Shown here in pieces: positions 1,821-31,396 of a DNA stretch of 64,000 nt. The DNA is from an uncultured Candidatus Saccharibacteria bacterium (lineage in GTDB: Bacteria; Patescibacteriota; Minisyncoccia; Phycocordibacterales; CSBR16-193): contig CAZLGQ010000001.1 of NCBI GenBank assembly GCA_964559575.1, positions 7,067 through 71,066 on the forward strand, read 5' to 3'. Made by a program: the position numbers and the translations under genes. The notes under the pieces are model-generated. The model worked only from the letters and a program-made list of their open reading frames with translations. It was not told the DNA's origin and searched no databases. Numbering within the stretch: the stretch's first letter is position 1; the number at the start of each line of letters is the position of its first letter.

Positions 1821-4800
1821 TTATATGATAATATTTATGATCCTGTTGGGAACAAAGAATACTTTTTTTATTTCTTTACCATTACACCATTTTGAAAAGA
1901 CTGGGGTTTTTTTAACCTCATCTAAAACGGTTTTTTCTTTAGAGTCTCTAGGTAGTTCTATACTACCTCTTGTTTTTCCATTTATTTGAAATATTATTTT
2001 TACATTTTCTTTTAATAGTACATCAGGGTTATATTTGGGCCAGTTTTTTTTATGAATTGAAGTTCTATTCCCAAGTGTTTCCCATATTTCTTCGGTTATA
2101 TGTGGAGCAAAAGGTGCTAAAAGAATTAAAAGATTTTCAAGATTTTCTTTTTTGATTTCTTCTTTTTCATCCATTAAATTAACCAAGATCATAAGAGAAG
2201 ATATTGCAGTATTGAAAGAAAAAGATTCAATATCTTCATTTACTTTTTTAATGGTTTTATGTAATGCGGTTTTTGTTTTTGTATCATTATTTTTATTTAA
2301 AGATACCTTTTTAGATAAATTCCAAACTTTTTCCAAAAATCTATGTGCTCCAACCGGACCATTGATATTCCAAGCTACTTCACCTTCAAAGGGTCCCATG
2401 AACATTATATATATTCTAGCCGCATCGGCTCCAAAATTCTTTATAATATCATCCGGACTTACTATATTTCCCCAACGTTTACTCATTTTTCTTCCATCCG
2501 GACCCAGTATAAGACCTTGATTTCTAAGAGCTATAAATGGTTCTTTTGTACTTACTAAATTTTCTTCGTATAAAAATTTATGCCAAAAACGTGAATATAT
2601 TAGATGCCTGGTGGCATGTTCAACACCTCCAACATAAAGATCAACCGGCATCCAGTATTTTTCCTTTTTCTGAGAAACAAATTCTTTATTATTACTAGGA
2701 TCAATAAAACGAAGATAATACCAACAGGATCCCGCCCATTGTGGCATGGTATTGGTTTCTCTTTTAGCTGAAGATCCACAGTTAGGACACTCTGTTTCAA
2801 CCCATGAAGAAATATTGGCTAAAGGGGATTCTCCGGTACCGGTAGGTTCATATGACTTAACTTCCGGAAGCTTAATTGGAAGATCTTTTTCCGGAACCGG
2901 AACTACTCCACATTTCTCACAATGAATTAAAGGTATAGGTTCACCCCAGTAACGTTGTCTGGAAAAGACCCAATCTTTTAATTTGTATGTAATTTTTTTC
3001 TTTCCTTCAACTTTCTTTCTTATCATCTCTTTTGCTTTTTCGCTTTCGATACCGGAGAGGTCTTCCGAGTTGGCTAGAACCCCACTTCCGATATAAGCAA
3101 AATCACCTTCTTTTTTTAACCATTCCATCCAGATGTCTATCTCTGCACAGGTGAGAGATTTAGCGGTCTCTTGGTTAAATTCAAGCCACTCTATATCATG
3201 TTTTTCCATTTCTACCTTTGAAATTTTCTTTCTCCTATTGCTTTTTAATTTGAAATGAACTGCAGTGGTATATGCTTTTCTGTTCTCATTTTTATGAGCT
3301 GCGTGATAATGGGCTTCCACTTGAAAAGGTGTCATCTTTTGAAATTCAAGATCAGTATAACCGGTTTCTTCTTCCACCTCTCTCTTTGCCGCTTTTACTA
3401 TATCCTCTCCTTCTTCCACTCCTCCGACTATAAATGTTCTCCAATTGAACTTTTTCCATTTTAAAAAGAGCATTTTACCGGAATCCGGATCTTCTACTAT
3501 TACATGAACAGTTTTCCTCTCCACCGTCTTTTTACCTTTTATGGGTGGAGTATATTTATCGATCCTTTTTGGATAGATGACATAATTTATTGGTAGGCCT
3601 TTTTTCGAGGCGAAATCAAAATCTCTCTCATCGTGAGCCGGAACCGCCATTATGGCCCCGGTTCCGTGGTTAGAAAGAACATAATCAGCGATCCATATAG
3701 GTATTTTTTTACCATTAACAGGATTTATTGCGTTTATTCCTTTTATTTCCACTCCTGTTTTATTTTTTTCCTCAGAAGTTCTTTGTAATTCTGTTTTTCT
3801 TTTTGTTTTATTTATATAGTTTTTAATTTCTTGTTTATTTTCTACAAAACTCCAAATTTCTTGGATCTTTTGATGCTCCGGAGCCACTACCATATAAGTA
3901 GATCCATAAAGCGTATCCGGTCTGGTAGTAAATACCGGAAGTGAGTCAGTTAAAAGTTTTTTAAGAGCCTTTTTAACCGGTAAAAGATCTTCTATGTCTT
4001 CTTTACTTCCTCCGTCTATATGTTTTCCGGTTTCTTTTGATCTATAAAGTCCTCTTAGGGGAAAATTTGGATTCAATTTTCCTTTTCTTTTAGTTGTCAG
4101 TATGACCTCTCTTTTATTTTTTTTATTTTTTATATCACCATTTGGGGTTGATAAAACCCAAACATCTTGCCAGTAAGCTTCCACTTCTCCTCCGTGTTTT
4201 TTAGCTATATTAGTATAATAACTAACCATCTTTTTACTTATCTGTTCTTTTGATAGTTTATTCTGCTCTTCTTCAGTTAAAACATTTCTTTTTACTTTTA
4301 TAGGATTATTTTTTTCACCCTTTATGTAAAAACCGGTATCTCCTGCCAGGATTGGTAAATTTGTTTTTTCTCTATAAGCCAAAGCTTTCTTTTCAGCATT
4401 TTTTAAAAGAGATACGCCTCCCTCAATAACTTCTATTTCTTTTATTCCTTTTTCCTTGGGAGTAAAAACTTTAATATCTAAACCTTCTGAGTTTAAAAGT
4501 TCCTGAACTCTTTCTTTTTTGCTTGGATTGTTACTTGCCAGAAGTATTTCTTTATATATACATACAGGAAAATCTATTTCCACACCTTGACTTTTCCCTA
4601 TCCAGTTTTTTTGAGAGTCTTTGATTGAATCCGGCCATTTATCTAAGAGATCAAGATCTTTTAAAAGGTCTTCGGCATAATCGGTTATCTTTAAAACCCA
4701 CTGTCTTACTGGCTTCTGTTCTACCTCAGAGTCACATCTCTCACAAAGACCATTTTCCAGATCTTCATTTGCTAGCCCAGTTTTACAAGACGGACACCAA

Positions 4801-6548: not shown

Positions 6549-7883
6549 TTATTTTATTTTTTTAATTTTTGAAATTATATCTCCATCATAAATTTTAACA
6601 TTAATTTCTTCACCGATCTTTAATTCTTTTTTGCTTTTTATGACCCTGCCTTTTTTCATTGTTATACTATAACCTAATTTCATCTGTTTTTTAGGATCAT
6701 TGGTTTGAATAAAACGATAAATATCATTTATTTTATTTAAGGAAATATCTAGGTTATTGAAAAAACCAAGTAAACTTTTTTTATATAGATCATTTATTTT
6801 CTTTGTTTTTATTATTTCAATATTCTTAGCGAGGGATCTTTCAATAAATATTAATCTATATTTTAAGTCTTTTTTGTTTTCATATATTTTTTGATTTAAA
6901 AACTGGGTAGATAAATAAATTCTATACTCATATTCTTTATATTTTTTAAAAATAGAATTCATTACACTGTTTGCTGAATTAAAACCCTCTTCTATTTCTT
7001 TTAAGGTTTTTTTAATAACTTTTTTATATTGATCTGAAATACTTTTTTCAAGTTCTTCTATTTTTTTGTCTGCTTCGTTCCAAGATTTGCCTATAACAGA
7101 AGCAACCATTGAAGGGGTTGATTCAGATATATCTGCCGCTAAGGCGGAAAGTGGAACATCTTGATGGTGTCCAATTCCTACAATTACAGGCTTGGGAAAT
7201 GAAACGATCTCTCTTACTAATGATTTATTATCAAAACCGGCAAGTGATTGCATTGACCCCCCTCCTCTAATTAAAACTAAAACATCTATATCTTCTTTTT
7301 TAAAAGCTCTAACAGACAAAGTTAAATTTCTTCCTGATTCAGGCCCTTCAACCGGTGAATGTAATATCTTAATTTTAAAGCCTGATTTTCTTAAGTTATT
7401 ACTAAAATCATGAATAGCTTCTCCGCGTATAGAAGTAATGACACCTATTTTTTTAGGAAAATCAGGAAGGGGTCTTTTTTTATTTTCATCAAATAGACCT
7501 TCTGTTGAAAGTTTCTTTTTTAATTTATCGTAGGCTTTTTTTAACTGTCCTTCTCCAACTAATTGGAATGACTTTATATGAAAAGAGAGTTTTCCAAAAG
7601 GACCATAAAACTCGGGGTATCCCTTTGCCATTATCTCCGCGCCCACTTCAAGTTCAACACCATTTAATACATAATCACTAGCCCACATTGTACACGGTAA
7701 AATATCACCCGTTTCTTTGTCTTTTATGACCGGATAGGCATGCCCTCTTGAAGACATTTTCATTTCACTTACTTCACCGATTATATCTATTTTTAAATTT
7801 CTTATTTTTGAGTTTAAAAGAGAGATAAATTTAGAAACGGTAAATACTTCATTACTATTATTTTCAAATTCTTCAATTTCCAT
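6549..7883 (-). CDS. xseA: Exodeoxyribonuclease VII large subunit
   Basis: N-terminal OB-fold region (IIGEVSE...HAYPVIKD), conserved central motifs (GVITS..GEAIHD, LIRGGGS..LAGFD) and a long C-terminal coiled-coil tail. Confidence 0.8.
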   Translation of the reverse strand: MEIEEFENNSNEVFTVSKFISLLNSKIRNLKIDIIGEVSEMKMSSRGHAYPVIKDKETGDILPCTMWASDYVLNGVELEVGAEIMAKGYPEFYGPFGKLSFHIKSFQLVGEGQLKKAYDKLKKKLSTEGLFDENKKRPLPDFPKKIGVITSIRGEAIHDFSNNLRKSGFKIKILHSPVEGPESGRNLTLSVRAFKKEDIDVLVLIRGGGSMQSLAGFDNKSLVREIVSFPKPVIVGIGHHQDVPLSALAADISESTPSMVASVIGKSWNEADKKIEELEKSISDQYKKVIKKTLKEIEEGFNSANSVMNSIFKKYKEYEYRIYLSTQFLNQKIYENKKDLKYRLIFIERSLAKNIEIIKTKKINDLYKKSLLGFFNNLDISLNKINDIYRFIQTNDPKKQMKLGYSITMKKGRVIKSKKELKIGEEINVKIYDGDIISKIKKIK

Positions 7884-26923: not shown

Positions 26924-26997
26924 TCTGGGGTAGCTCAATGGTAGAGCTCTCGACTGTTAATCGAGTGGTTGTGGGTTCGAATCCCACCCCCAGAGCC
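26924..26997 (+). tRNA. tRNA-Asn (anticodon GTT)
   Basis: Cloverleaf with acceptor stem TCTGGGG/CCCCAGA, D-arm GCTCAATGGTAGAGC, anticodon stem-loop CTCGA-CTGTTAA-TCGAG (GTT) and T-arm GTGGGTTCGAATCCCAC. A discriminator G and CC follow. The 3' A of CCA is not encoded. Confidence 0.85.
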
Positions 26998-27205: not shown

Positions 27206-27745
27206 ATGAAAAAACTTATATTTTTTGGAGACAGTCTATTAGCGAGAATTAACCCTGATATGATAAAAAAAATTGAGGAGAGTATCGGTAGTATTATTAT
27301 CGATAATCATGCAGTGGGAGGATCAACGACAAATGATGCACTGGAAATAATTGAGTCTGTTTCAAAATTGAAAGCTGACTATGTAGTAATATCTTTAGGG
27401 ACAAATGACATACTTAAAGACAATCTGTCCTGTCCTGAATATCTAGAAAACATGATAAAAATAATTTCTGAATTTTCCGAATCAAAAGTGTTCGTGTGGT
27501 TAACTCCTCCCGCCAACGACATAAACGACCCCGAAGGAACAAAAGAGTTTAATGAAAAGATTGGCCAATATTTCGATGGTCTAAAAAATATATGTAAAGA
27601 TTATAACTTTAACTTTATAGACACTTTTTCAGTCTACAAAGATGCGGTTATGCTTGATAATAAATATCACGAAGAAGATGGTATTCATTTAAGTGTTGAC
27701 GGATATAAACTATTTACTGGTTCATTAGTAAAAACTTTTAAATAA
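27206..27745 (+). CDS. SGNH/GDSL-family hydrolase
   Basis: FFGDSLLA (block I GDS) and ISLGTNDI (block III) motifs. Start moved to the internal ATG at 27206 (MKKLIFFGDSL), since the upstream part of the track ORF is a non-conserved hydrophobic extension. Confidence 0.6.
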   Translation: MKKLIFFGDSLLARINPDMIKKIEESIGSIIIDNHAVGGSTTNDALEIIESVSKLKADYVVISLGTNDILKDNLSCPEYLENMIKIISEFSESKVFVWLTPPANDINDPEGTKEFNEKIGQYFDGLKNICKDYNFNFIDTFSVYKDAVMLDNKYHEEDGIHLSVDGYKLFTGSLVKTFK

Positions 27746-27749
27746 GAGG

Positions 27750-28080
27750 TAGGTTTTGTATTACAACTCCTAGTGAAGAGAGTGAATTTATTTACTATTG
27801 TCAGGATTCGAAAGGTACAGCGATGTTTTTCCGGCAGGAAAAACCGCGAACCAAGGTCGTGAAAATTCAAAAGCGACGGCCTTTGAATTATTCTTAACCG
27901 AATCCTGCCGCTGGAGCAAAAGTCAGTTTAACCCCAATGCGCTAGCGTTGGGGTTTTACTGATCTTTCGCTGAGGTGAAATTTAAAAGACGGAGGCGGTA
28001 TACAAGACGAGCGTAGCGAGGGCCTGTCTAAGAGCTCGGGGTCGCGCTAACACTTAGCCGAAATAAGGAAATTCAATTAT
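27750..28080 (+). ncRNA. GC-rich, highly structured intergenic region: candidate stable ncRNA(s) of unassigned family
   Basis: A roughly 330-bp stretch at about 50% GC sits in a roughly 30% GC genome and has no convincing ORF. It contains a long-range pairing CAGGATTCG (27811..27819) with CGAATCCTG (27899..27907), internal hairpins TTTTTCC-GGCA-GGAAAAA and AATTCAAAAG/CTTTGAATT, and a terminator-like hairpin AACCCCAA-TGCGCTAGCG-TTGGGGTT plus T-run at about 27931..27960. A second GC-rich structured part occupies 27960..28075. Confidence 0.3.
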
Positions 28081-28120
28081 AACCCTTATCATATGTGATA
28101 TTATGTATTAAATTCATATT

Positions 28121-29011
28121 TTGATTAAAAATAAAAAAGCTATGAAAGTATTAATATCTAATACTAAAAAAGTTGAAGAGATCAAAAAGGAAATGCAAAG
28201 ATCTGGACCGGATAAGATCCACGTTCTTTCCGATTTTGATAGAACCCTAACCTACGGAACGACCAACGGAATAAAAACCCCCTCTATTATTTCCATGCTC
28301 AGGGATGGAAAACACTTAACAGATGATTATGCGGACAAAGCTCATTCTTTATTTAATAAATATCATCCACTTGAATCTGATTTGAACATTCCTTTAAGAG
28401 AAAGAAAAGAATTAATGCAAGAATGGTGGAAAAACCATCATGATCTATTGATTAAATCGGGTCTTAGCAAAAACGATCTTGAAGATACTGTTAAAAATGG
28501 ACATGTTAAATTCAGAGAAGGCGTTCCCGAATTTGTTGATCTTTTATATAACAAAAAGATCCCTTTGGTTATTATGTCAGCATGCGGTTGTGGAGAAGCA
28601 GTAAAAATGTTTTTTCAAAAGATCAAAAAAGATCATTCAAATATATTTTATATTATCAATAAATATCATTGGGATAAAAACGGAAAAGCTCTTTCTGCGA
28701 AAGAACCGATAATTCATGCTTTAAATAAAGATGAGACGGTGTTGGAGAATTTCCCGAATGTATATAAACATATAAAAGAAAGAAAAAAAGTTATTCTACT
28801 GGGAGATAGTATTGGAGATATTGATATGATCAAAGGATTTCGTTACGAGAAACTTTTAAAGATCGGGTTTTTAAACAGTGGTTATGAAAGATTAAGAGAA
28901 AAATATTTAGACAGTTTTGATATAGTTTTAGAGGGAGACAAGGATTTTTATTTCATAAATAAGCTCTTTAAAGAAATAATTTTAAAAAAAAATTTTAAAA
29001 TCTATAAATAA
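28121..29011 (+). CDS. HAD-superfamily pyrimidine 5'-nucleotidase (UMPH-1/NT5C3-like)
   Basis: HVLSDFDRTLT (HAD motif I, D-x-D-x-T) in the characteristic NT5C3 context, GDSIGDIDM (motif IV-like), and about 296 aa. Confidence 0.5.
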   Translation: MIKNKKAMKVLISNTKKVEEIKKEMQRSGPDKIHVLSDFDRTLTYGTTNGIKTPSIISMLRDGKHLTDDYADKAHSLFNKYHPLESDLNIPLRERKELMQEWWKNHHDLLIKSGLSKNDLEDTVKNGHVKFREGVPEFVDLLYNKKIPLVIMSACGCGEAVKMFFQKIKKDHSNIFYIINKYHWDKNGKALSAKEPIIHALNKDETVLENFPNVYKHIKERKKVILLGDSIGDIDMIKGFRYEKLLKIGFLNSGYERLREKYLDSFDIVLEGDKDFYFINKLFKEIILKKNFKIYK

Positions 29012-29016
29012 ATTTT

Positions 29017-29455
29017 ATGAAAATATATTTTGCAGGATCAATAAGAGGAGGAAGAGAAGATAGAGAAAAATATTTTAAAATAATAGAATACCTTAAAAAA
29101 CACGGTGAGGTTCTCTCCGAACATATAGGGTCTGAAAACATAGACCACAAAGGAGAAAAGCTCTCTTCAGAAGAAATATTTAACAGGGATGTAGAATGGA
29201 TAAAAAAAGCCGATGTGATCATCGCAGAAGTCTCCACACCCTCTTTAGGTGTTGGCTACGAAATATGCTTTGCAGAAGAATTGAATAAAAAAAATACTCT
29301 GTCTTTTTCAAGAGAACGACAATAAAAAGTTATCTGCGATGATAAGTGGAAATAAAAATATTAAAGTTAAATATTATAAAAATACTAAGGATATTTTTAT
29401 AACACTAAACAAATTTTTATCAAATTTAAATCATAAAAACAGTTCAGACACTTAA
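29017..29455 (+). pseudogene. 2'-deoxynucleoside 5'-phosphate N-hydrolase (DNPH1/Rcl-like), interrupted by a +1 frameshift in an A8 homopolymer
   Basis: Frame 1 (29017..29325) gives MKIYFAGSIRGGREDREKYF...VIIAEVSTPSLGVGYEICFAEELNKK, a strong match to the DNPH1/Rcl signature YFCGSIRGGRED...VVAEVTQPSLGVGYE. It stops early after the A8 run (29287..29294). The next frame continues KILCLFQENDNKKLSAMISG..., matching the DNPH1 continuation KPILCLFRPQSGRVLSAMIRG, and runs to a TAA at 29453..29455. Confidence 0.6.
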
Positions 29456-30682: not shown

Positions 30683-30710
30683 TTATGATCGTTCCGATCG
30701 ACATAACTAA

Positions 30711-30974
30711 TCAGTCCCTCCAAGGAGAGTCCTTTTCTAAGGCCTCCTTTTGGCGCTTTGCTTGCTCATTCAAGCACAAAGCACAACTGATTTTCACGTC
30801 TATTGGAACGCGTTGGTCGTCGGTTGCCCCGAGGACAACTCCACACTTCTCGCATTTCAAAGTGCGTTTTTGCCCGTTCAGGCAATCAGAACAAATGACC
30901 GAGATGTTTTCTGGTACTCGCTCATCTGCTGTGGCGGCGAAAATACCGTCGCAGCTAATGCATACCAAAATCAC
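30711..30974 (-). CDS. Small double zinc-ribbon protein (internally duplicated CxxC...CxxC module), in a GC-rich island
   Basis: GTG start preceded by AGGAGG. Two homologous modules (ADERVPENISVICSDCLNGQKR and TDDQRVPIDVKISCALCLNEQAKR) each carry a CxxC-x17-CxxC spacing. Their nucleotide differences are mostly synonymous, which indicates purifying selection. Codon usage is GC-rich and unlike the host. Confidence 0.45.
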   Translation of the reverse strand: MILVCISCDGIFAATADERVPENISVICSDCLNGQKRTLKCEKCGVVLGATDDQRVPIDVKISCALCLNEQAKRQKEALEKDSPWRD

Positions 30975-31028
30975 CTTAAACCCCTCCTAGGTTATAGACA
31001 ACGACCCTAAAGCCGAGGTCTATCTGGG

Positions 31029-31217
31029 TTAGTAGCGTCCTCCTACGACACTATCCATTTGAGACACGCAATGGTGCCCCTTTTCATCCTGATTCAGTGC
31101 AAACACCACCTTCACAGAGGTACCTTGCAACTGACGGCATTTGTGGCAGACTATGATCTTAACGACCCAATAGTCACGTGAATCATAAACCCTGCCACAC
31201 TGAGCGCATCTAACCAT
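31029..31217 (-). CDS. Small zinc-ribbon protein (CxxC...CxxC), in a GC-rich island
   Basis: 62 aa: MVRCAQCGRVYDSRDYWVVKIIVCHKCRQLQG.... An SD-like GGATAAGG lies upstream. Codon usage is GC-rich. The gene sits directly upstream of and on the same strand as the 30711..30974 ORF. Confidence 0.4.
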   Translation of the reverse strand: MVRCAQCGRVYDSRDYWVVKIIVCHKCRQLQGTSVKVVFALNQDEKGHHCVSQMDSVVGGRY

Positions 31218-31396
31218 AACCTTATCCTTTCCTGGTTATCAAGGAACAACACGAGGGAAACATTCCCCCCGATCAGTTAAACAATTAATCTAACCAATCG
31301 GGGAAAATGATTTCCTCAACTAAAATTTTTGCCATTAAACCAGATTTAATAACAAATGTAAATACTAACGACTATATTAATAATAATATAGAAAAA

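Follow-up and report, generated by a model that had tools for sequence, protein, structure and literature searches.

The GC-rich spacer between a GDSL hydrolase gene and a UMPH-1 5'-nucleotidase gene in the window (the whole stretch of 64,000 nucleotides analysed here) is best read as an orphaned, partly eroded tandem pair of structured units at 27767-28078, an orphan relic or remnant. It appears somewhat probable that this pair stems from a multi-copy family of RNAs that trail tRNA genes in Parcubacteria-type Patescibacteria, and that such RNAs are passengers transcribed together with the tRNA. The architecture of the family, and possibly its ancestry, matches that of the RtT RNA encoded in the tyrT operon of E. 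coli.

The spacer and its two units

The spacer (27746-28141) is non-coding, as stated in the initial annotation, which had singled out about 330 nt of it as GC-rich; its GC content rises to 0.47 at positions 27800-28099, compared with 0.25-0.35 (about 0.30) in the flanking sequence. On the plus strand the segment 27746-28120 folds at -125.2 kcal/mol, against -92.6 +/- 4.9 kcal/mol for shuffled sequences (z = -6.69, with none of 100 shuffles folding as well), while the folding z-score of the minus strand is -5.1. Every helix and element previously listed was found in the sequence, though some details had to be amended. The 9-bp long-range pair exists, with CGAATCCTG at 27899-27907, but its partner CAGGATTCG lies at 27802-27810 and not at 27811-27819; the two hairpins that it encloses occupy 27826-27843 (TTTTTCC/GGAAAAA) and 27864-27889 (AATTCAAAAG/CCTTTGAATT). 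The terminator-like hairpin is present at 27930-27955, but its T run consists of just four T, below the criterion of at least five, and a simple terminator scan left it unflagged, whereas its equivalents in two other loci (L054 and L061) were flagged. The helices, which had been described as looking mutually exclusive, are instead nested in a single multi-branch fold.

Two observations had been named as arguing against a structured RNA. The first was an empty Rfam search combined with a lack of conservation: the search with Rfam 15 over the whole 64-kb window indeed returned tRNA-Asn only, with nothing meaningful in the spacer region at E <= 10, but conservation and covariation of the element are strong, as described below. 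The second was a conserved small ORF across the region, and none is conserved there; the 54-aa ORF located at 27798-27962 is missing from the nearest relative and matches nothing in Pfam. The proposal of a structured RNA element is thus upheld by folding far beyond that of shuffled sequences, by covariation among homologues and by conservation above that of synonymous sites. The features of the region are listed in Table 1.

Table 1. Array units, neighbouring genes and the nearby tRNA gene, with positions in the window
Feature	Positions	Strand	Remarks
tRNA-Asn(GTT)	26924-26997	+	Rfam 75.7 bits, over 26924-26995; also called by ARAGORN
GDSL hydrolase gene	27206-27745		
Unit 1, complete	27767-27916	+	MFE structure of 27764-27920 gives exactly this fold
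Unit 1, outer acceptor-like helix	27767-27773 with 27911-27916	+	
Unit 1, small extra hairpin	27781-27796	+	
Unit 1, P1 5' arm	27802-27810	+	CAGGATTCG; family-wide, inverted tRNA T loop and 3' side of the T stem
Unit 1, P2	27814-27852	+	GGU..ACC and GCG..CGC, cap TTTTTCC-GGCA-GGAAAAA; from the alignment to model R1
Unit 1, P3	27855-27898	+	GGUCGUGA ... UUAACC; apical hairpin AATTCAAAAG-CGACGG-CCTTTGAATT
Unit 1, P1 3' arm and tail like a tRNA 3' end	27899-27918	+	CGAATCCTG CCG CTGGA G CA
Inter-unit hairpin	27919-27967	+	AAAGTCAGT ... AACCCCAATGCG CTAG CGTTGGGGTT TT ACTGATCTTT
Unit 2, decayed P1 5' arm	27968-27986	+	CGCTGAGGTGAAATTTAAA; intact form CACTGGAGTGGGATTCGAA in L067 and L008
Unit 2, P2 core	27988-28037	+	Contains the 19-mer GGCGGTATACAAGACGAGC (27994-28012)
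Unit 2, start of P3	28038-28078	+	GGGGTCGCG, then AACACTTAG, then eroded sequence
UMPH-1 5'-nucleotidase gene	28142-29011		Same orientation as the array

Unit 1 is complete, and the segment 27764-27920 that contains it has a minimum free energy of -49.8 kcal/mol (z = -4.07). Its closing helix P1 is of the GGAUUCG/CGAAUCC type, with arms that correspond to a T loop and T stem, and in its P2 the GGA/GA internal loop conserved in the family is replaced by ACA/GA, a change that may be compared with the divergent member at 7532-7644 of locus L068. The tail of the unit resembles the T loop, T stem, acceptor strand and G discriminator of a tRNA, as in tRNA-Asn, and no tRNA matching this tail (CGAATCCTGCCGCTGGAGCA) occurs within the 64 kb. 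The unit starts 22 nt past the stop codon of the GDSL gene and has no adjacent tRNA, as tRNA-Asn ends 770 nt upstream of the outer helix and the GDSL gene intervenes. That tRNA-Asn is the probable ancestral partner of the array, now split off by the GDSL gene. In a Campbellbacteria MAG (L067), a hairpin and a unit homologous to window positions 27919-28040 come immediately after a nearly identical tRNA-Asn, and the inter-unit hairpin of the window is homologous to the terminator-like hairpin right after tRNA-Asn in that MAG. The intact P1 5' arm found in L067 and L008, CACTGGAGTGGGATTCGAA, is the antisense of the 3' end of tRNA-Asn.

Unit 2 is more eroded. The best duplex of its P1 arm with any downstream partner reaches -7.1 kcal/mol, compared with -15 to -37 kcal/mol in intact units; the 5' strand and the apical hairpin of P2 are intact, while the 3' strand CTGTCTAAGAGCTC is off the consensus pairing. 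The distal part of P3 and the 3' arm of P1, both kept in the related locus L006, are missing according to pairwise alignments and alignments to a covariance model, R1, that was built from 21 canonical units. Unit 2 therefore lacks the P1 closing helix, its arm having decayed and its 3' partner being gone. Both units are matched by R1, unit 1 with 47.5 bits (27799-27910, E 3e-12) and unit 2 with 38.5 bits (27973-28078, E 3e-9), and they stand 62 nt apart, as do units in arrays elsewhere. Intact canonical units score 100-137 bits as against 38-48 bits for those of the window, and the copies in the window, being eroded and low-scoring, may thus be relics.

The spacer is 100% identical in five contigs with an identical UMPH-1 protein, which makes these copies uninformative. 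In the nearest different genome (the L006-L008 group, in which one strain carries an extra tandem copy) UMPH-1 is 82% identical and a homologous element lies upstream of the same gene, while the gene upstream of the element differs between the window and L006. Over the best-conserved stretch, the hairpin and unit-2 core, identity between the window and L006 is about 88% (counted by eye on the alignment), compared with 66.5% at third codon positions of UMPH-1; this identity above the synonymous level could reflect selection or gene conversion from other copies. The two-unit array in L006 is bracketed by direct repeats, GAGCCACTGACAT[C/A]AATCGCCCGA, at about 5445 and about 5868, the first being the 5' arm of a long hairpin and the second a shortened copy at the end of the array.

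A family of elements downstream of tRNA genes

The 19-mer GGCGGTATACAAGACGAGC in the core of unit 2 has exact matches in 56 GTDB genome stretches, all labelled Patescibacteria and often with several matches per genome; the hosts include Nomura-, Campbell-, Kaiser-, Taylor- and Yonathbacteria, Paceibacteria and others, and the viral contigs of IMG/VR contain no match. Loci anchored on this 19-mer share a fixed layout, in which a tRNA gene of any kind is followed by an A-tract, a GC hairpin and a T-tract and then by the unit. The latter begins with the 3' end of the tRNA in inverted form, which covers acceptor strand, T stem and T loop and ends in ...GGGATTCGAA, proceeds through the conserved core AAGACGGAGGCGGTATACAAGACGAGCGAAGCGAGTGCTTGTCGCCGAGTCGGGGTCGCGA and a variable hairpin, and closes with GTGACC and the tRNA 3' end repeated in direct orientation from about C56. 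The inverted copy, which forms the 5' arm of P1, is complementary to the tRNA 3' end without a mismatch over up to 20 nt, and in most units it can form a duplex of -15 to -37 kcal/mol with the downstream copy as well. At least one unit lies downstream, on the same strand, of 53 of the 101 tRNA genes (16 amino-acid types) in the sampled loci, a fraction that is biased upward because these loci were chosen for having a unit. The distance from tRNA to unit peaks sharply at 52-55 nt, and successive units of an array are about 60 nt apart; tandem arrays occur in the window (two units) and in L006, L008, L018, L031, L052 and L071. The hairpins in the tRNA trailers score as terminator-like and promoter-like sites are found ahead of the tRNAs, while scans of L054 and L061 detected no promoter-like site between hairpin and unit.

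Clustering of ORFs of at least 90 aa from the 8-kb loci yielded, as recurring neighbours, only housekeeping genes at varied positions and a spurious ORF, and no transposase or integrase recurs near the units in these loci. The spurious ORF, of about 110 aa, overlaps the conserved unit on the opposite strand at 3172-3507 of L033 and in four other loci, and could be miscalled as a conserved hypothetical protein. The units, which account for many GC-rich intergenic islands in Patescibacteria genomes, may thus mislead gene callers.

Several individual loci deserve mention. In L042, a trailer unit at 3338-3460 lies behind a group I intron at 2944-3212 (RF00028, 67.6 bits); the arrangement probably marks a tRNA split by the intron, missed by ARAGORN, that bears an element as well (compare PMC13011429). 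A paper on group I introns in tRNAs of Patescibacteria concerns a feature different from the element. At about 1060-1140 of L049, the 5' two-thirds of a tRNA-Ala-like gene are joined at the T loop (GGGGGTTCGAG|TTAGGACTCGAAAGACGG) directly to a unit, and no matching 3' end was found for this fused gene, an arrangement indicative of recombination at T loops. In L017 (3974-4061), L051 and L058 a tRNA-Ser is predicted by ARAGORN that has the anticodon ACT, and the one in L017 comes directly after a unit that itself follows tRNA-Ser(GCT). A T-box-like match of 66.4 bits, short of the gathering score of 93, was found at 584-765 of L041, a Patescibacteria MAG.

Fold, covariation and decay of the arms

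RNAalifold predicts for the 21 canonical units a three-way junction of P1, P2 and P3, which in some family members becomes four-way. P1 pairs the inverted and the direct copy of the 3' end of the unit's own tRNA, from the T loop outward, and encloses P2, which is conserved in sequence and has G.A-rich internal loops, and the covarying P3. Searches with R1 retrieve 79 units in 58 Patescibacteria loci, many without the exact 19-mer. In an alignment of 43 units, which was itself fitted to R1, 93% of the cells at paired positions can pair versus 33-45% in slid controls, all 34 pairs change on both sides, and the covariation score is 0.514 as opposed to at most 0.095 in controls; the middle pair of P2a, for instance, is seen as A-U, G-C, C-G and U-A. 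The excess of G.U over A.C pairs (95 versus 24) favours the tRNA-sense strand as the one that folds. Within P2, an alternative pairing proposed by RNAalifold (GACGAGC/GCUUGUC) is less well supported than ACAAG/CUUGU combined with ACGAGC-GAA-GCGAGU. In four P2 variants the tandem G.A pairs are replaced by Watson-Crick pairs (GCUCG), and the minimum free energy structure of L064 agrees with the preferred pairing.

The two parts of P1 have fared differently. The inner 8-13 bp are nearly always paired, while in the outer part, which derives from the acceptor, the two arms decay to about the same degree, with 45 changes confined to the antisense arm versus about 50 in the copy by our own tally, and mimicry of a full tRNA acceptor arm is hence not maintained. 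For the same reason a mimic of an aminoacylatable minihelix is disfavoured. Units seem to be born with perfect arms from the local tRNA, of which later only the closing helix is kept. As judged by eye, a few nucleotides from the trailer of the gene itself are often part of the downstream copies, and CCA is not systematic; the duplicated segment does not stop at the tRNA end but runs on into the trailer, in L019 even across the hairpin. The lack of systematic CCA together with the trailer nucleotides points to duplication at the DNA level, and the idea of a retro-copy of mature tRNA was rejected on the grounds that such nucleotides are included and that CCA is not systematic where the gene lacks it.

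The favoured reading of the family as tRNA-trailing passenger RNAs can be extended into a tentative scheme. New units would arise by duplication at the tRNA 3' end, and arrays would grow and shrink by recombination between the repeated tRNA ends. A unit would be transcribed by read-through from the tRNA promoter, an assumption that places transcription beyond the terminator-like hairpin, would fold on the tRNA-sense strand and might then be freed by tRNA-processing nucleases, whereupon the conserved inner part of P1 together with P2 and P3 could bind a putative factor. If the family is real and functional, it would be one of the commonest classes of structured RNA in a vast, poorly understood bacterial radiation, and it bears on the evolution of tRNA gene flanks.

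Possible kinship with RtT RNA and alternative explanations

RtT RNA (RF00391; rttR, the 178-bp repeats of the E. coli tyrT-tyrV operon) resembles the family in lying downstream of a tRNA, on the same strand and in tandem. An RtT unit starts with GGGGAAGGAU, the antisense of the 3' side of tRNA-Tyr, and ends with AAUCCUUCCCCCACCACCA, the 3' end of tRNA-Tyr from the T loop; the two pair with each other and close a multi-branch fold, as P1 does in the family. Both also have in common the 13-mer CGAGCGAAGCGAG (in the main unit type, at the same offset from P1) and a GA-GC-loop-GC-GA hairpin, and a GAGAAG junction is found in RtT and in some family units. The copy number of RtT is variable as well: across 4738 E. 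coli genomes it lies between 1 and 10. There are differences, too: RtT follows tRNA-Tyr genes (one E. coli locus was examined), whereas in Patescibacteria the family is found behind at least 16 types of tRNA; the spacer in E. coli RtT is not a terminator hairpin and the copy includes CCA; and P2 and P3 of the family differ from RtT in topology and have a much more conserved core. E. coli RtT units score 133-137 bits with RF00391 (gathering threshold 45 bits), while this model has no match in the window, either at the gathering threshold or at E <= 10, nor in canonical units, and R1 gives E. coli RtT about 4 bits; as neither covariance model detects the other family, homology can only be inferred. 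A common substring of at least 11 nt between RtT and the family core arose in 6 of 2000 shuffles, and the z-scores of local alignments vary between -0.3 and 4.8 according to the pair aligned. Taken together, the shared architecture and short motifs argue weakly for kinship. In papers citing Bosl and Kersten (1991), RtT RNA is described as freed by processing of the tyrT transcript and as a possible modulator of the stringent response. The design shared with the family, and the linkage of the latter to tRNAs of all kinds, offer a way to approach by comparison the role of RtT, unclear since 1991.

Rfam searches that covered the window, 18 loci containing canonical units, a single canonical unit and six additional loci retrieved only tRNAs, one group I intron and noise, and no description of the element was found in Rfam 15 or, by sequence strings and keywords, in the searchable literature. 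Other known systems offer partial parallels. Integrative elements use tRNA 3' ends as att sites of tyrosine recombinases, and cis-mobilisable elements accrete there in tandem. As in the family, direct repeats of the tRNA 3' end from or near the T loop flank the insert, the tRNA is regenerated and tandem arrays form; unlike such elements, the family has inserts of about 170-200 bp with no integrase found nearby, adds an inverted copy of the tRNA end, and shows the same core at many different tRNAs together with covariation of the RNA type. Signals for tRNA-like processing also occur at RNA ends, as in the mascRNA of MALAT1 and in viral tRNA-like structures. A helix that copies the acceptor and T arm could similarly recruit tRNA-processing enzymes and define or stabilise RNA ends, but in the family the T loop is paired throughout, and the part from the acceptor is not preserved. 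Miniature repeats such as REP/BIME, Correia and ERIC are short, multi-copy, structured and intergenic, and are often co-transcribed; they have element-specific inverted ends and no dependence on tRNAs, in contrast to the family, whose ends are copied from the local tRNA.

The strongest competitor of the passenger RNA reading, although itself rather unlikely, is that the units are non-autonomous mobile DNA, comparable to MITEs or cis-mobilisable elements, which inserts into tRNA genes, at their T loop or 3' end, by means of an enzyme encoded elsewhere; the fold would then belong to a single-stranded DNA or transposition intermediate or be incidental, and the copies in the window would be dead relics. 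The multi-copy nature of the units and their flanking direct repeats would be expected of such DNA, as would tandem accretion, the co-existence of fresh-looking copies with perfect 20-nt arms and old copies with decayed arms, orphan copies such as those of the window, the fusion of a tRNA fragment to a unit at the T loop in L049 and the failure to find a link to any host gene. What it leaves unexplained is that the arms differ with each tRNA and so cannot be the constant, element-specific inverted repeats of a mobile element, that covariation with many G.U pairs favours one strand, and that the core is nearly invariant across deep lineages, with even an orphan copy conserved above synonymous sites. 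The constant terminal inverted repeats, short target duplication and nearby cognate transposase by which MITEs and IS elements are recognised were not found at the loci examined. The lack both of a recurring transposase or integrase nearby and of matches among viral contigs of IMG/VR likewise speaks against mobile DNA, and the latter also led to the rejection of a viral origin.

A bolder interpretation, to which only a modest chance can be assigned, would make the unit on many tRNA genes either a tRNA-specific RNA partner homologous to RtT, for example one that senses or controls the state of tRNA 3' ends or takes part in starvation signalling, or an RNA-mediated, self-propagating copier of tRNA ends. 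Were either version true, RtT would be the lone enterobacterial member of an ancient and widespread class.

It is improbable that the units act as tRNA-specific antisense or guide RNAs, whose 5' arm would pair with the 3' half of the cognate tRNA or with its gene and so direct a factor bound to P2 and P3 there for surveillance, modification or regulation. The complementarity of the arm to the tRNA 3' end over up to 20 nt, next to a conserved scaffold, invites this idea, and where tRNA and copy differ within the inner 16 positions, there are 37 cases in which the arm matches the tRNA and 9 in which it matches the copy (own tally). Against it, the downstream copy and the outer half of the arm decay at about equal rates, and the part that is maintained, from T loop and T stem, is alike in all tRNAs and would therefore confer little specificity; moreover the arm is sequestered in P1, and no associated protein was found in the 8-kb loci.

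The immediate neighbourhood in the window might suggest a cis-regulatory leader or riboswitch for UMPH-1, which follows the element in the same orientation here and in the nearest relative L006, or a terminator structure in the 3' UTR of the GDSL gene, given the 22 nt between the GDSL stop codon and unit 1 and the hairpin at 27930-27955 with its short U run. Either is very unlikely, as the family is tied to tRNA genes and has varied neighbours in both orientations, the upstream gene is different in L006, and there is no Rfam riboswitch match. The spacer accompanies UMPH-1 only in the 82%-identical relative (L006-L008), whereas in homologues of about 62% identity the gene abuts the preceding gene without a spacer, and the element is thus not a general riboswitch for UMPH-1; at the level of the family the leader reading is largely refuted.

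A housekeeping RNA, to which a GC-rich structured island in an AT-rich genome might point, can be practically dismissed, since neither RNase P RNA, tmRNA, SRP RNA nor 6S RNA has an Rfam match even at E <= 10 and the units occur in many copies per genome with tRNA-specific arms. The motif GGAUUCGA recalls the 5' region of tmRNA; ARAGORN found no tmRNA in the window, Rfam was likewise negative and there is no plausible tag frame. The families suggested in the initial annotation, namely these four RNAs and a nucleotidase riboswitch, are therefore rejected on the negative results of Rfam 15 and ARAGORN and on the linkage to tRNAs.

Two further features of the window lie outside the array. A second GC-rich island (30700-31250, GC 0.48-0.50) carries two small Cys-rich ORFs on the minus strand, one of 87 aa with four CxxC motifs (30711-30974) and one of 62 aa (31029-31217); neither has a Pfam match, and they are annotated as genes in just one of the identical assemblies. 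UMPH-1 adjoins a nucleoside 2-deoxyribosyltransferase-like gene, with which it forms a nucleotide-salvage pair (28142-29325), and UMPH-1 homologues of about 60% identity are common to Patescibacteria and DPANN archaeal MAGs.
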